DNA from: Candidatus Pelearchaeum maunauluense
GTDB taxonomy: Archaea > Thermoproteota > Nitrososphaeria_A > Caldarchaeales > Caldarchaeaceae
DNA: 64,000 nt
NCBI GenBank assembly: GCA_030059675.1
Contig: JANVYQ010000002.1
Span: 18,260 to 82,259 of the forward strand
Direction of reading: 5' to 3'
The notes beneath the pieces were generated by a model. The model saw only the letters and a list, made by a program, of their open reading frames with translations. It did no database searches and had not been told where the DNA came from. Numbering within the stretch: position 1 is the stretch's first letter; the number at the start of each line of letters is the position of its first letter. Position numbers and translations under genes: made by a program. Shown here in pieces: positions 57,405-63,352 of the stretch.

Positions 57405-57498
57405 GTTTTCCACATAATATTTTATATCCCAAAATTATTTTGTTTTTTATAAAATATAGGGAGGGGAGTGGTCGGGTATAGTAGTCTATCTGCTCAAT

Positions 57499-57774
57499 TT
57501 ATCGCTGTCTATGTGGACAATATCCATAGAATCCTTTCGCTAGGTTGCAGTTAAAGCATAGAACTTGGAATTCCTCAGGAAAGTTGTTTTTAACTATCCA
57601 TTTATAAAAGTGTATTCCCCAGCCTACTTGCTTGAAATGTCGTAAACCTCCTCCGTTTACGTGGTCTATTGATAGGAATTCAAGTCTAGTCTCGCCACAA
57701 CAACTACAACGTGGGACTCCCCTGCTATAATACCTGAGTATTTCCTTTCTTTCCTCAGCTAGTCTGATAGCCAC
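57499..57774 (-). CDS. HNH endonuclease
   Basis: CSCCGETRLEFLSIDHVNGGG...FQVLCFNCNLAKG is the HNH/zinc-finger nuclease motif. 91 aa. Confidence 0.7.
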   Translation of the reverse strand: MAIRLAEERKEILRYYSRGVPRCSCCGETRLEFLSIDHVNGGGLRHFKQVGWGIHFYKWIVKNNFPEEFQVLCFNCNLAKGFYGYCPHRQR

Positions 57775-57781
57775 TATAGAC

Positions 57782-58210
57782 TTATGAGGGCATTATTCCA
57801 TAAAGTGCTATTGCTTTATTGCAGTTGTAGCAGAGAACTCTAAAGCCTTCAGGGAAATTGTTCTTGATGATCCAGCAATAAAACTCTGTCCCTCCCCTAA
57901 TCCTATAGCGACGCTTCTGTAAACTGCCATCCTGACGTATATGGTCAATCGAAAGGAACTCTATTCTATCCTCGCCACAACATGTAGATTTGCCACCGTA
58001 GCGTTGTATCACTAAGGATTTAATCCGTCTTCTTCGCCGTCTCTCTCTTTCTCTGCGAATTTCGCGAAGTCTATCCCGACGTCGCCAATATGATTCACAC
58101 CATATCTTGCGTACTCGCTCTTTGTTTCTTTCGAAATAGCGAATCCAACGACGATGTTGTTTTATTTTCGCATCATCTAACTTAGAGGAACTACTGCTCA
58201 ATGCCTCCAC
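57782..58210 (-). CDS. HNH endonuclease (tandem paralog) with Arg-rich N-terminal extension
   Basis: CCGEDRIEFLSIDHIRQDG...FRVLCYNCNKA HNH motif, preceded by RRRDRLREIRRERERRRRRR. Confidence 0.7.
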   Translation of the reverse strand: MEALSSSSSKLDDAKIKQHRRWIRYFERNKERVRKIWCESYWRRRDRLREIRRERERRRRRRIKSLVIQRYGGKSTCCGEDRIEFLSIDHIRQDGSLQKRRYRIRGGTEFYCWIIKNNFPEGFRVLCYNCNKAIALYGIMPS

Positions 58211-58439
58211 CTCCCTACGCCCCTAGCACCAGCTCTACGGGAGCGCCTGCTCCTAAAAATCGTAGAGCTAAGCGCCTTTGTTCTACCGCCATCCAGGGCT
58301 TGATGGCGGTCCCGCATAGGCAGGGCCTTCATACTCCCCCTTGGTAACATATTGGGGGGCGGCCCGCTTGGCCGCGAGCCCCTGCCGTGCAGAACCGCCA
58401 TCAGGTCGGCGACGCTAACTGTATTCAGAAGCACTCGCC

Positions 58440-58930
58440 GGAACTAGCTGGCAGATGACACTCGGCAGAAGGATAGCAGTATTTCCATCACCTGTCCAGG
58501 TTCTCCTCCCGTGTCTTCTCCAGGATACCCTCTACGCTGCCCCGTTCACCGCGTGCTCCAGGCATAGTTAAGCCCTTCACCGCACGCTCCAGGAAACAGT
58601 GTAGAAGTATCCGTTCACCGAAGACATGGGAGGATATCGGCCGTCATCTAGGTTCTGCATGCGGAGTATTGGCTCCGGGCCGGAACAGCCCTAGAAGCAC
58701 CCTTCACTACTTGGCTCCTGGAGTCTAGCTAAACCTCCTTTCACCACCAAGCTCCAGGCAACCCCTAGAGCTGACCAACCCTTCACCACCAATACACCCA
58801 CATGCAGCTCACCCATCAGGCCGACCTCCGTGAGGCTCAGGCTAAAACTCCCTTGAACATCAGGCGGAAGCCTAAGCCCCCGAGGCTCGGCACCATAACC
58901 CGACCACCCTCCGCCCGGACTCAAATAACT
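58440..58930. repeat. GC-rich degenerate tandem repeats (~35-45 nt units, core CCCTTCACCNCNNGCTCCAGG on + strand), noncoding
   Basis: At least six copies with irregular spacing (31-89 nt) and out of phase with any reading frame. Only short low-complexity ORFs overlap. Confidence 0.5.
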
Positions 58931-58997
58931 ATCCGGGCGTCACCCTATTTCAGGTGAGGACAGGAAAGAGAGAGGCTGGGCCGGTCGGGCTACTTAA

Positions 58998-60345: not shown

Positions 60346-60676
60346 AACCAGTTCTCCATACGAGCCGGACACGAGTTGGTTCTTAGGCTAAATCATATAG
60401 TTTTCATGAGTGATGTTATCTTGCTTAGTAAAGAAAATATATAGACCGCACAAAGCTTATCAGCTGATAATTTTCCTCCTTATATTAATCCTGCCCTTAA
60501 GCTATTACGCGCTTAATCTAAATGTTGTGGTCTGAGATTAGGCTAGGGTTATTATGGAAGGGCTGTCTTCTATGACGTGTAGAGCTCAATTTCGCCCCCT
60601 AAACCGAGGCAGACAATACGGTGAGCGAAGCTTATAAGACCTATAGAAATCGGATTAAGGGCGAAGAGCGATATTA

Positions 60677-60889
60677 TTATATTGTTCCGGCAGTTATTTC
60701 CGCTAACTGTTTTAGTATTCCCCTCTTCTTTGCATTCCACACTTCTATTCCCATAACCATACCTCTATCGTCCCTCTCAACTATTATCCCATCCTCTAAC
60801 TCTTCAACCGACTCAGAAGGCCCGTCCCTCAAGTGAATGTATAGAATATCATTCTCATGATCGTAGCTAAATCTCAAGCCCTCACCCAA
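60677..60889 (-). CDS. DUF2283-family small protein (antitoxin-like partner of DUF4258)
   Basis: FSYDHENDILYIHLRDGPSESVEELEDGIIVERDDRGMVMGIEVWNA matches the DUF2283 pattern (YD.e.D.lyI ... G.ivGIEi.nA). Confidence 0.6.
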   Translation of the reverse strand: MGEGLRFSYDHENDILYIHLRDGPSESVEELEDGIIVERDDRGMVMGIEVWNAKKRGILKQLAEITAGTI

Positions 60890-61152
60890 ACACCCCTATC
60901 CACCTTTCTTCTTATAAGCTTATCTACGCTCGACGAGTAATAAACTGTCACAATTCTCACCATATCATCCCTTCTAGTAAAGACTATTACCAACATTCTC
61001 TGCCCTATAATCCCTATAGCTACCAATGTATCAGATTCAACGTCGCGGAATAGCATGTTAGGCCTACTAATAATTTGCAAGACGTCATTCATATCAACTC
61101 TTCTTACCCGTATCTTCTCCTCAGCATGCCTAGTTAGCTCAATCCTAACCAA
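60874..61152 (-). CDS. DUF4258-family small protein (RelE/ParE-superfamily toxin-like)
   Basis: ...HAEEKIRVRRVDMNDVLQII...GQRMLVIVFTRRDDMVRIVTVYY matches the DUF4258 pattern. Overlaps the DUF2283 gene by 16 nt in operon fashion. Confidence 0.6.
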   Translation of the reverse strand: MVRIELTRHAEEKIRVRRVDMNDVLQIISRPNMLFRDVESDTLVAIGIIGQRMLVIVFTRRDDMVRIVTVYYSSSVDKLIRRKVDRGVWVRA

Positions 61153-61619
61153 GCTATTAAAACAAACTTTGCCGATTAATTAAACATGCGAAGGATACTA
61201 AATTAATACCCTAGTCCTTGATTTTTAGAGTAAATAAGAGACCTGGGTTATAAGCAAATACACCACATACGGATTAAGAGCTAACTATTAATAATTGCGT
61301 TATTCTCCGGCTCAAGTATCTATTCAAGTTTCTTCTCAAGTTTTTGGTCAAGTTATTTTTATAAGCAGGTATTTTGTGTCTGTTTCTTTATATTTTTCAA
61401 TGCATAGGTCTTTTAGGGGGGTACATATTAGGTAGACCATAGGCTACTTGTAGTTGTTAGCAACGTGAGAATCGTGTGAGCGAGCTTTTTATCCTTATTT
61501 AATTAATTTCCTTTAAGGGGTAAGGGGATGGGGTTTGATTGTTCTTTTTGGGTATCGAAGGCGAGAGAGTCGGGATATCCTGTGTGAGGAGGATCTTGTG
61601 TTGATTATTTGAAGGAGAG

Positions 61620-61943
61620 TTGTGTGTAAAGAAACCTTCAGAGGCAAAGGAGGAAATCGTCTATACGCCTGCACCACAGCCTACCGAAAAAGCTGTGAAG
61701 GAAAAGAAAGAAGAAAAAACTGCTTTTGAAGAATACACAAGAATATATCTTAAATTAAATGTTCCCATAGGGCAAATATCTACTATTGCCAAAATTGTAA
61801 ACTACTTGAATGGCTTGTTCAAAGAATGTAAAGTGAGAATTGAGATAACTGCGCAAAACGGAAAAATTAGGGCTACTGATTACGAAAACAAAATAGAAGA
61901 AGCTCTAAGACAGGCGGGGGTTGATGTTGAAAGTAAAGAATGA
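61620..61943 (+). CDS. hypothetical protein
   Basis: 107-aa ORF in a low-GC segment downstream of iteron-like repeats followed by TTTTTATAA. Confidence 0.35.
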   Translation: MCVKKPSEAKEEIVYTPAPQPTEKAVKEKKEEKTAFEEYTRIYLKLNVPIGQISTIAKIVNYLNGLFKECKVRIEITAQNGKIRATDYENKIEEALRQAGVDVESKE

Positions 61944-63130
61944 AATTGCCGCTTGCCTAACAGCAGTTGTCCGAAATTGCAGGCGACAAGCTTGTAAATG
62001 TCAAAAAGGATTTAATACGAGAAGGATATTGTCCTAAACGTGATGGGAGGCTATAAAAATGAAGGTAGTTTCATTTACTTTTTGTAGGTTCGCTTGTATA
62101 TTTGCTGTATAACAAGACAATTTTAGGAAAGAATTTTACTCTATTTCCATTTAGGAAAATAATTCGTAAAAAATACTTAGAACAAATTAATAGACGATGA
62201 ATGGAGAGAATAATACGAGCACGTCGCACAACAAGCGGGTATCTGCCTTTGCTCACTTCGTTCGTTCCAAATTTGCAAGCTTTAATCAATTCTCGTGTTA
62301 GGTATATGCGTTCAGAAGACTTAAAAGCCTAATAGTCAGATTAATACTAAAGTTAAAGCTGAGATGGTAAAATGATCAAAGTTATCAGAAAAGGTAGAGT
62401 TTTAGAGAAAGTGCTTGCAAGAACGCCAAAAGAAGCAGCCTCCAAAATCTTAGGGATTAACCCAGCTAAGCTGAAGCTCATCAAGAAAACTGAGAGGGAT
62501 GACTATGTTTTGGATTCGAAGGGGAAAAATTGAAGTTTGGGAAGTTTTGCCTGCTGTGTGGGATTATGATATTGGACCAATAGCTCGATCCGTTTGACTA
62601 GAGATACCAGACCCAGAGACTAGGTCGAACCCCAAAAACCCGATCGCGTTCGTAGTTGGTGTCGTGGGTGCTCTGCTAAGAAGTATTCGGTTCCCTCCGT
62701 TTAGATTTCCTTAACAAGCTAACTACTTTACGAACTTGCTGAGGAGGATAAATGCAGACTCCAGCTTTCGATTTTGTCTGAGCATCGACCGCAGTAGGGG
62801 TGCGGGTGGAGCTGTATGCACATGGTTTGATCTTATAAGGCAATTCTTGATCACGCAATTCCGAAGAAATCGAGAAAAAATCGTGAACATAATTGCAAGT
62901 AGAATCGATGATACGGCAAAAGGAGAGCTTAGCAAGAAGCACGAATATTCAAGGGCAAAGAACGATAAGAGAAGTGGAGGTTGTATTGAAAGATGAGATA
63001 ATAGATAAGAAAGAGTATCAGGAAGACATGAGACTGAGAAGCTTAGCCCTTAATTTAAACATGGAGAAAGAGTAAAAGCCAGCGATCTTGCAGATGTTGT
63101 TCTTAAAATCATCAAGGACCCATTGAGCGA

Positions 63131-63352
63131 TTGAACGGTGTTGTTACTGATATTGCGAGAAAGCTTGGTTATACACCTTCCACTACTACTAACACTAGAC
63201 GTATGGGAGCATACGAGGCTGGGCGTATTGCCCCCTCGGCTCAGGCCTACTACCTCCAGTACAAGAACGACAGAGCAAGCTACGTTGACACTTGGTGGGT
63301 ACTGGTCAACTGGGACGATGTCGACAAGCGCTTCTCCAAGGCTAAAGCCTAA
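63131..63352 (+). pseudogene. duplicated 3' fragment of sod (includes the same 32-nt insertion, 63213..63244)
   Basis: 63180..63285 is identical to 57228..57333. Downstream it encodes [24 protein letters not shown], a diverged version of the sod C-terminus, followed by a similar 3' flank. Confidence 0.75.

Follow-up and report, generated by a model that had tools for sequence, protein, structure and literature searches.

A putative bulge-helix-bulge intron in an archaeal superoxide dismutase gene, its neighbouring HNH endonuclease gene and a second, partial copy of the gene's 3′ end

Why should an archaeal chromosome carry the 3′ end of its superoxide dismutase gene (sod) twice, as direct repeats on either side of 5.7 kb of other DNA? 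The question is raised by a 64,000-nt stretch of Candidatus Pelearchaeum maunauluense (contig JANVYQ010000002.1 of assembly GCA_030059675.1), which was analysed at its full length and is called the window throughout. An earlier, sequence-only reading of the window had taken the block between the copies for an integrated element that entered the 3′ end of sod, brought a replacement end with it and left the two copies as its attachment sites attL and attR. Our analysis gives a different answer. The sod gene itself is very probably interrupted by a spliced 32-nt bulge-helix-bulge (BHB) intron, and the flagged repeat most plausibly arose as a side product of the pairing of this intron with the HNH endonuclease gene next to it. 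On the comparisons reported below, the best reading of the block is that of variable DNA downstream of an intron-containing sod and not of a self-contained integrated element.

The open reading frame (ORF) that begins at the sod start codon (56766) closes in a nonsense tail, and the true C-terminus of the protein (...KAKV) is found in another frame. Exon 1 is 75–82% identical in nucleotide sequence to the sod genes of other Caldarchaeales (the SOD proteins being ~85–96% identical), and the C-terminal codons are out of frame with it because a 32-nt insert sits between the two parts, where it separates the EH and AYY codons and shifts the frame. The same 32 nt recur in the second copy of the gene end, and they are missing from 18 related intron-less Caldarchaeales sods for which downstream sequence is available. 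All 35 residues encoded by exon 2 match the C-termini of two intron-less SODs (P0007 and P0024), the exon 2 of the left copy thus being identical to the corresponding part of functional SODs, and removal of positions 57261–57292 yields a product of 200 aa that is 91–96% identical to related SODs.

The insert and its surroundings fold, in both RNAfold and RNAalifold, into a motif of the hBHBh′ type, in which a 4-bp helix (GAGC/GCUC) separates two bulges of 3 nt each on opposite strands (AU|A and AG|G), with a 5-bp and a 9-bp helix to either side, and RNAalifold returned this fold unguided. Cuts after the second base of each bulge would join CAT|GCC and restore exactly the invariant SOD motif EH|AYY, with ...GGGAGCAT|GCCTACTAC... 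as the predicted spliced junction. Across four distinct intron sequences 97% of the cells pair, as opposed to 40–56% when the partners are slid against each other. One pair (17-41) changes from C-G to G-C in the sequence from contig L083, the sole compensatory change among the four, and most of the remaining substitutions fall in the bulges or the loop; L083 also breaks two paired positions (6-51 and 27-33). In all four intron-bearing lineages exon 2 is open and evolves conservatively in the shifted frame, and the reading of sod as a pseudogene was rejected on this ground. A programmed frameshift or a translational bypass of the 32 nt was likewise considered and rejected, as take-off and landing codons that match each other are missing and the canonical BHB cuts restore the frame exactly. 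An sod gene interrupted by a spliced BHB intron is, on the strength of sequence and predicted fold, well supported, and the intron would be excised at the RNA level by the tRNA splicing endonuclease and RtcB ligase, like that of cbf5 pre-mRNA.

An intron at the same site is present in three further Aigarchaeota assemblies, namely the metagenome-assembled genome (MAG) S146_89 of Candidatus Pelearchaeum (L004), a JGI contig (L082) and an ENA contig (L083), the latter two having been found because gene callers had turned their sods into frameshifted 'SODs' of 208–209 aa. Intron-bearing sods are deposited as proteins of 208–212 aa (P0001 and P0002) with a nonsense C-terminal tail (...DVWEHTRLG...), which we read as an annotation artefact, and searches with such tails could find more archaeal mRNA introns. 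When JGI metagenome contigs and IMG/VR were scanned for sods with a 12–42-nt insert at EH|AYY, one chance match was all that was returned (L081). The intron-bearing genes are not monophyletic: in a neighbour-joining tree of 120 SODs the four occupy at least three places among intron-less genes, and the smallest clade that unites them contains 86 of the 120 sequences. The closest SODs to that of L083 are intron-less and 94–96% identical to it.

The L083 contig can be compared directly with the intron-less locus of Caldarchaeum subterraneum (L015), with which it is collinear at 92.6% nucleotide identity over 7.5 kb of ribosomal-protein and RNA-polymerase genes. Relative to L015 it has the intron and, in place of 190 nt after sod, a 1.27-kb insert made up of an HNH gene and ~500 nt, the right junction of which lies within the 3′ end of a DUF2283 gene. 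There is no second sod copy on the L083 contig, of which 672 nt remain beyond the HNH gene. Counted from the intron site, the mismatches between the two sods number 7 in 40 at –34..–1 and 13 in 74 at +34..+108, against ~5% elsewhere in sod, and the segment +1..+33 of L083 looks native when compared with L015.

The HNH gene of the window lies 98 nt downstream of sod and is convergent with it, and L083 sod and HNH are collinear with window 56784–58214 at 81% identity. When compared with the single 232-aa ORF of L083, the two halves of the window's gene show 82% and 78% identity to its corresponding parts, each half has the motifs CCGE...DH...N...CxNCN, and both match HNH / endonuclease VII in PHROG (E 4e-5 and 1e-4); against PDB the protein has no significant sequence match. 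The family has more than 1300 members. Two relatives whose genomic context was looked up (P0124 and P0143; 45% and 44% identical over the full alignment, 47–52% in tblastn segments) are free-standing genes among phage tail genes, and a free-standing gene in such company is the classic setting of homing endonuclease genes.

Among the Caldarchaeales loci with downstream sequence, the HNH gene is found in all three that bear the intron and in one of the 18 that do not, a co-occurrence with a simple hypergeometric p of ~0.003 that is uncorrected for phylogeny. The single intron-less case is archaeon HR01 (L007), where a stop-riddled remnant of the second HNH domain (10640–10840) follows sod; such a remnant would fit either a homing-endonuclease cycle in its decay phase or an HNH gene that is older than the intron. 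The state of the gene differs between the loci, in that it is one ORF in L083, split by a frameshift in the window, and decayed in L082 and HR01.

How, then, did the second copy of the sod end arise? The left copy (S) and the right copy (S′, hereafter psi-sod-3′) are direct repeats over 243 nt at 87% identity (blastn, E 8e-80), with a gap-free core of 194 nt at 89% (57221–57414 and 63173–63366, repeat search). Most of what the sequence-only reading had said of them was reproduced by pairwise alignment: 57228–57333 and 63180–63285 are 100% identical over 106 nt, next to a mismatch (57227/63179) and six more identical bases, and the 3′ flanks are similar, the homology stopping ~57–60 nt past the stop codon. 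The diverged sod C-terminal codons that it had noted after both copies are indeed homologous, but they stand in another frame than the rest of sod, on account of the 32-nt insert. Outside the identical tract the two copies are ~82% identical, through the stop codon and ~57 nt of 3′ flank, and the left edge is sharp at 63173. Protein-level and Smith-Waterman searches for a longer decayed sod copy upstream of 63173 gave nothing above shuffles, and no third copy of the sod 3′ end is present in the 64-kb window.

A perfect run of 106 nt is unexpected at ~82% identity, so the tract records a recent recombination event, and the abrupt switch from 100% to ~82% identity requires recombination. Beyond +41 the exon-2 part of S′ differs from that of S in 11 codons, six of them synonymous, which indicates that the two copies diverged at least partly as functional alleles. 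With respect to the intron site the identical tract extends from –33 to +41, and its rough centring on the intron is more suggestive of gene conversion or homing than of an att core. The left end of psi-sod-3′ lies 40 nt upstream of the intron site, and in L082 a decayed sod 3′ fragment (7575–7689), 1.4 kb downstream of sod, begins ~12 nt downstream of that site; by their positions these two ends and the tract point to events at the intron site. The presence of a second, independent decayed fragment in L082 also marks the sod end as a recurrent target of recombination. The onset of the excess divergence between L083 and L015 coincides with the edge of the window's identical tract at –33/–34, which may be chance.

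Table 1. Features of the sod locus and of the DNA downstream of it (positions in the window; a dot marks features without a strand)
Feature	Position	Strand	Description	Basis
sod exon 1	56766..57260	+	Fe/Mn superoxide dismutase, codons 1–165, ends ...DVWEH	ORF, translation
Putative BHB intron in sod	57261..57292	+	32 nt, ACGAGGCTGGGCGTATTGCCCCCTCGGCTCAG	Presence/absence in relatives, RNAalifold fold
sod exon 2	57293..57400	+	35 residues + stop	+2 frame relative to exon 1
Left repeat copy S	57221..57463	+	Final 40 nt of exon 1 with the intron, exon 2 and 63 nt of 3′ flanking sequence	
Right repeat copy S′ (psi-sod-3′)	63173..63409	+	40 nt of exon 1, intron copy 63213–63244, exon-2 copy 63245–63352, 57 nt of flank	
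Tandem-HNH endonuclease gene	57499..58210	–	Two ORFs in different frames (57782–58210, 57499–57774)	ORFs, L083 homology, PHROG
GC-rich (55–60%) spacer upstream of HNH	58211..58990	.		77% identical to L082 12200–12655 except for window-specific insert
Retropepsin-like aspartyl protease ORF	58998..59366	–	122 aa	Pfam PF13975 / PF13650
Truncated PaREP1/HEPN ORF	59462..59728	–	Model positions 2–89 of 115	Pfam PF05942, E 6e-16
12-nt repeat, inverted arrays	60208..60346	.	TCAAGTTTCTAC; third array 61300–61364	
DUF2283 antitoxin-like + DUF4258/BrnT-like toxin pair	60677..61152	–		Pfam
ORF	61620..61943	+	107 aa	No family match
Right-flank gene F	63426..64000	–	190 C-terminal codons (full protein 297 aa), cut off by the end of the window	Homology

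We consider it the leading account, with a probability of roughly 0.4, that a free-standing tandem-HNH endonuclease of the homing type travels with the intron, that break repair at the insertion site left the partial sod copy behind, and that part of this copy was afterwards homogenised by gene conversion. The intron and the HNH gene would then be a selfish pair, as in 'collaborative homing', with the nuclease cutting an intron-less sod near the insertion site and repair from a donor bringing in the intron, a new exon 2, the HNH gene and trailing DNA. If both flanks were homologous the old sequence would be replaced cleanly, the situation of L083 relative to L015. If homology existed at the left end only, the copied DNA would be joined to the recipient's broken 3′ end, which would survive as psi-sod-3′ beside its old neighbour. 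Gene conversion from sod could later have put the intron and its flanks into psi-sod-3′, possibly after this copy, while intron-less, had been cut anew, and so have produced the 106-nt tract, and the DNA between the copies would be a mosaic of old neighbours (the HNH gene, the spacer, the retropepsin-like ORF and perhaps the toxin-antitoxin pair) and of later insertions and decayed fragments. The broader proposal that the 32-nt BHB mini-intron spreads between Aigarchaeota at the DNA level by means of the neighbouring free-standing tandem-HNH gene, the psi-sod copies being scars of one-sided homing repair, is more tentative still, and we would not bet on it.

A number of observations weigh against the account of an intron that travels with the HNH gene. 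On that account psi-sod-3′ should be a native allele, yet the motif WWVLVNW in its exon 2 is seen in none of ~116 SODs compared, and the copy is at least partly decayed. HR01 holds its HNH remnant without an intron, and the link between sod and HNH consists of adjacency and co-occurrence at only four HNH-bearing loci, from which we infer the cutting of sod. The HNH gene is broken in both the window and L082, so a recent conversion would need either an active copy elsewhere or ordinary gene conversion. The similar divergence of sod, the HNH module and gene F between L082 and the window fits vertical inheritance with rearrangement equally well as import. As for the intron itself, the covariation comes from a single pair in four sequences, and its score is not significant, being reached in 129 of 500 shuffles. 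Finally, the window is part of a MAG, and its junctions rest on the assembly.

The contig L082 holds a rearranged version of the locus and bears on every alternative. Its order is sod, a partial retropepsin end (corresponding to window 58978–59159), 1.1 kb, the decayed sod 3′ fragment, 3.8 kb of unrelated genes, the HNH gene with its spacer, and F. The HNH gene and spacer match window 57487–58356 and 58668–59098, and F (corresponding to 63432–63998) follows after 200 nt. The left 1.7 kb of the window's block (HNH gene, spacer and retropepsin end) thus adjoins F in L082 with no sod repeat between them. Window 59099–63411 has no counterpart in L082, and between the cargo of L082 (6476–11472) and window 59420–63172 no homology was found, even at word size 7 or with tblastx. 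Identity between the two loci is 80% for sod, 77% for the HNH gene with spacer and 78% for F. L082 has two partial retropepsin 3′ ends, copy a (6302–6475) and copy b (12655–12775); over ~115 nt the window's end is 83.5% identical to copy a and 77.2% to copy b, and the two copies are 72.8% identical to each other. The partial sod copies of the window and of L082 each resemble their own sod and have their own type of 3′ flank. Seen as a whole, the gene order of L082 is a circular permutation of that of the window. A 75-aa fragment with a weak Cas12f/TnpB-like match lies 0.9 kb upstream of its sod (4485–4712).

Could the block nevertheless be a decayed element of the integrase type, a circle with an sod 3′ fragment as its attP that inserted to give attL at S and attR at S′, supplied exon 2 and then lost its integrase? 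The geometry claimed by the sequence-only reading is there: direct repeats derived from the 3′ end of the target gene do bracket the 5.7 kb, and they match perfectly over 106 nt before they diverge. The decayed sod 3′ fragment of L082 suggests repeated use of the site, and the cargo (toxin-antitoxin pair, PaREP1 fragment, HNH gene) is of the island type. The contigs of L004 (intron-bearing) and L088 (GCA_027042105.1, intron-less) stop 1–6 nt from the sod stop codon, as expected at a repeat or variable junction, and this suggests that such a repeat or strain-variable junction exists there in other populations too. What is missing is the element. As the sequence-only reading had itself observed, no integrase is evident, and neither the ORFs (Pfam and PHROGs) nor six-frame segments of at least 35 aa from 58900–63180 (Pfam, E ≤ 0.5) contain a remnant of an integrase or other recombinase, a transposase, or a replication or structural gene; the degraded recombinase that it had proposed to look for is thus absent from these scans. 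The block has no similarity to phage and plasmid records, and two ORFs tested against IMG/VR have no relatives there. Nor was the block inherited as a unit, because the HNH gene adjoins sod in L083 and HR01 and the left module adjoins F, without an attR, in L082. This last arrangement comes close to what the sequence-only reading had named as evidence against itself, namely the block in a relative without the repeat. The empty site that it predicted, sod directly followed by the right flank, is seen in no relative; an attempt to find one through homologues of F led to L084, which shares the F gene alone, indicating that F itself occurs in variable contexts. Furthermore, in L083 the HNH insert replaces the 190 nt of L015 without leaving a second sod copy, and a reciprocal crossover between partners that are 82% identical would not by itself give a perfect tract of 106 nt. 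A decayed element is therefore unlikely in our view.

Plain segmental duplication fares slightly better and is still rather improbable. It supposes an ancestral tandem of the module sod 3′ end–HNH–spacer–retropepsin that was reshaped by lineage-specific deletions and insertions and by ordinary conversion, and it has the merit that the L082 order is what remains after two deletions, the order of the window needing one. The alike divergence of sod, HNH and F (77–80%) agrees with it, as does the finding that the retropepsin end of the window is nearer to copy a and that the two L082 copies are the most divergent, as if the duplication predated the split, a weak point given the ~115 nt compared. 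The partial sods, however, are not nearest to each other, each resembling its own sod, and repeated conversion has to be added. Such a duplication also leaves unexplained that both partial copies start within 40 nt of the intron site, that intron and HNH gene are gained or lost together (L083 compared with L015), and that the intron is patchy. An artefact of assembly, in which the contig was threaded through a graph loop at the 106-nt tract (from a separate molecule or a strain variant) and the copies are not linked as drawn, is the least probable of the alternatives. The source is a MAG contig, the MAG contigs of L004 and L088 break at the sod 3′ end, and an exact repeat of 106 nt is near the resolving limit of short-read assemblers; however, the sod–HNH junction is seen independently in L083 and HR01, a partial sod with a diverged exon 2 and a non-sod left flank must physically exist, and in the independently assembled L082 a partial sod likewise lies downstream of sod within a single contig.

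The sequence-only reading's inventory of the block was largely borne out. Pfam confirms the retropepsin-like protease, the PaREP1 fragment and the DUF4258/DUF2283 pair; the short repeats were found again as arrays of a 12-nt unit, and its GC-rich degenerate repeats are units of ~40 nt in the spacer. Its two tandem HNH endonucleases are tandem HNH domains, but belong to one gene that has come apart into two halves, and its low-GC tail exists (G+C is low after ~60.2 kb) but is not specific to the block, the whole of 42–64 kb having a low G+C of ~39–52% compared with 50–56% for 10–42 kb. Between the HNH gene and the retropepsin-like ORF, the spacer contains a window-specific insert of 310 nt (58357–58667), the degenerate repeats (CCNTTCACC...GCTCCAGG) and a near-palindrome (58274–58321). 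A coding role was rejected because its translations are no more similar between the window and L082 than its nucleotides are, and it is probably non-coding. A second GC-rich patch is present at ~59800–60200. The match of the retropepsin-like ORF to gag-asp_proteas in Pfam (E 2.6e-6) is at threshold.

The 12-nt arrays are located at 60212–60266, 60306–60336 and 61311–61354, the first two being inverted and 43 nt apart and the third lying 1 kb off. As a set they flank the DUF2283/DUF4258 toxin-antitoxin operon, and they could serve as operators or be origin-like. In both L015 and L083, sod is directly followed by a pair from these two families (31–36% identical). The 107-aa ORF has no match in Pfam, PHROG or IMG/VR; Rfam, run on the block at the gathering threshold and at E ≤ 5, gave spurious matches of miRNA models to hairpins only, no tRNA is present in the window, and exact-sequence look-ups of the window's proteins returned no record. 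All in all, the intervening DNA has the look of a region scrambled by recombination beside a selfish HNH nuclease gene.

On the right flank, F is 100% identical to P0242 (NXY59_02890, on a 239-kb contig of a MAG labelled Aigarchaeota archaeon) and 78% identical in nucleotide sequence to L082 12998–13564. Its relatives, at 45–80% identity, occur in unrelated contexts in Aigarchaeota, Aenigmatarchaeota, Odinarchaeota and Thermoprotei, and relatives more remote than these carry EVE domains (PF01878). Instead of marking a fixed place on the chromosome, F may be a mobile gene of the defence type. Three full-length PaREP1 genes (47025–47513, 48790–49290 and 49346–49831) lie within 42–64 kb, and the low G+C and the PaREP1 genes of these last 22 kb place sod within a larger variable, island-like region. 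Upstream of sod, at 55093–56094, are two glycosyltransferase genes that look damaged: the ORF of the first, a GT1 (55093–55566), consists of the C-terminal domain alone, and the second, a GT2, compared with its homologue in L006, runs in two frames with a 1-base overlap near 55645, which suggests a 1-nt frameshift, either of a pseudogene or through an assembly error.

The nearest known relatives of the sod intron are those of cbf5. The cbf5 pre-mRNA introns of Crenarchaeota are 16–44 nt long, ORF-less and flanked by BHB motifs (Watanabe 2002; Yokobori 2009, PMC2738675), their history is one of a single gain and few losses (PMC2738675), and within the literature that we retrieved all protein-coding BHB introns reported in archaea are in cbf5 genes (PMC2738675). 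Full-text literature searches gave no report of an sod intron in archaea. Like the cbf5 introns, that of sod is short and ORF-less, interrupts a protein-coding gene at a BHB motif and varies in presence and absence among relatives, and it too is presumably cut by a hetero-oligomeric splicing endonuclease; Aigarchaeota possess such an enzyme of broad specificity, of the (αβ)2 type (PMC5829648). It differs in the gene, in the phylum (Aigarchaeota/Caldarchaeales), in being scattered among intron-less alleles that are 94–96% identical, and in its neighbouring HNH gene. Mobile archaeal rRNA BHB introns encode LAGLIDADG homing endonucleases such as I-DmoI and I-PorI (PMC2738675), and with these the sod intron would share both the BHB motif and spread at the DNA level by a homing endonuclease. 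In contrast to the rRNA introns, which run to hundreds of bases and include an ORF for the endonuclease, it has 32 nt, and its candidate enzyme, from a different nuclease family, is the product of a gene outside the intron.

A free-standing endonuclease that serves an endonuclease-less intron is the hallmark of collaborative homing, as in psbA and F-CphI of cyanophage S-PM2 and in nrdB and MobE of phage Aeh1; to our knowledge the known cases are phage group I introns, with biochemically proven endonucleases. The sod locus is similar in that the intron sits in a conserved motif, the nuclease gene lies beside it, the two are gained together and divergence is raised near the site. It is dissimilar in that the intron is a protein-spliced BHB mini-intron of a cellular archaeal gene, and the nuclease a tandem-HNH protein of putative specificity. 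Prophage e14 and phage 21 integrate into icd with a replacement 3′ end, and archaeal elements of the SSV and pNOB8 types use tRNA genes. As with these, the block is an insert downstream of a gene with a duplicated 3′ end, the gene being completed by one of the copies while a fragment, the other copy, marks the far junction; unlike these elements, which have their own integrase and are present or absent as units, it has neither an integrase nor a remnant of one, and its parts occur separately in relatives.

How BHB introns are gained is an old question, for which reverse splicing, scars of mobile elements and homing have all been proposed. A putative new BHB intron in an archaeal protein-coding gene, with a patchy distribution and a co-occurring free-standing HNH gene, is the more interesting content of this locus. 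As a second protein-coding gene with such an intron, in another phylum, sod offers close intron-plus and intron-minus alleles and with them a direct handle on intron gain, and the frameshifted sod calls imply that intron-bearing archaeal genes are mis-annotated in MAGs. Were the intron indeed to spread with the help of the HNH gene, no mobile BHB intron would have preceded it in a protein-coding gene of archaea, and collaborative homing would for the first time extend beyond phage group I introns. Should the HNH protein target the insertion site, the splicing by proteins that archaea share with eukaryotes would be tied to the homing way of life familiar from self-splicing introns.

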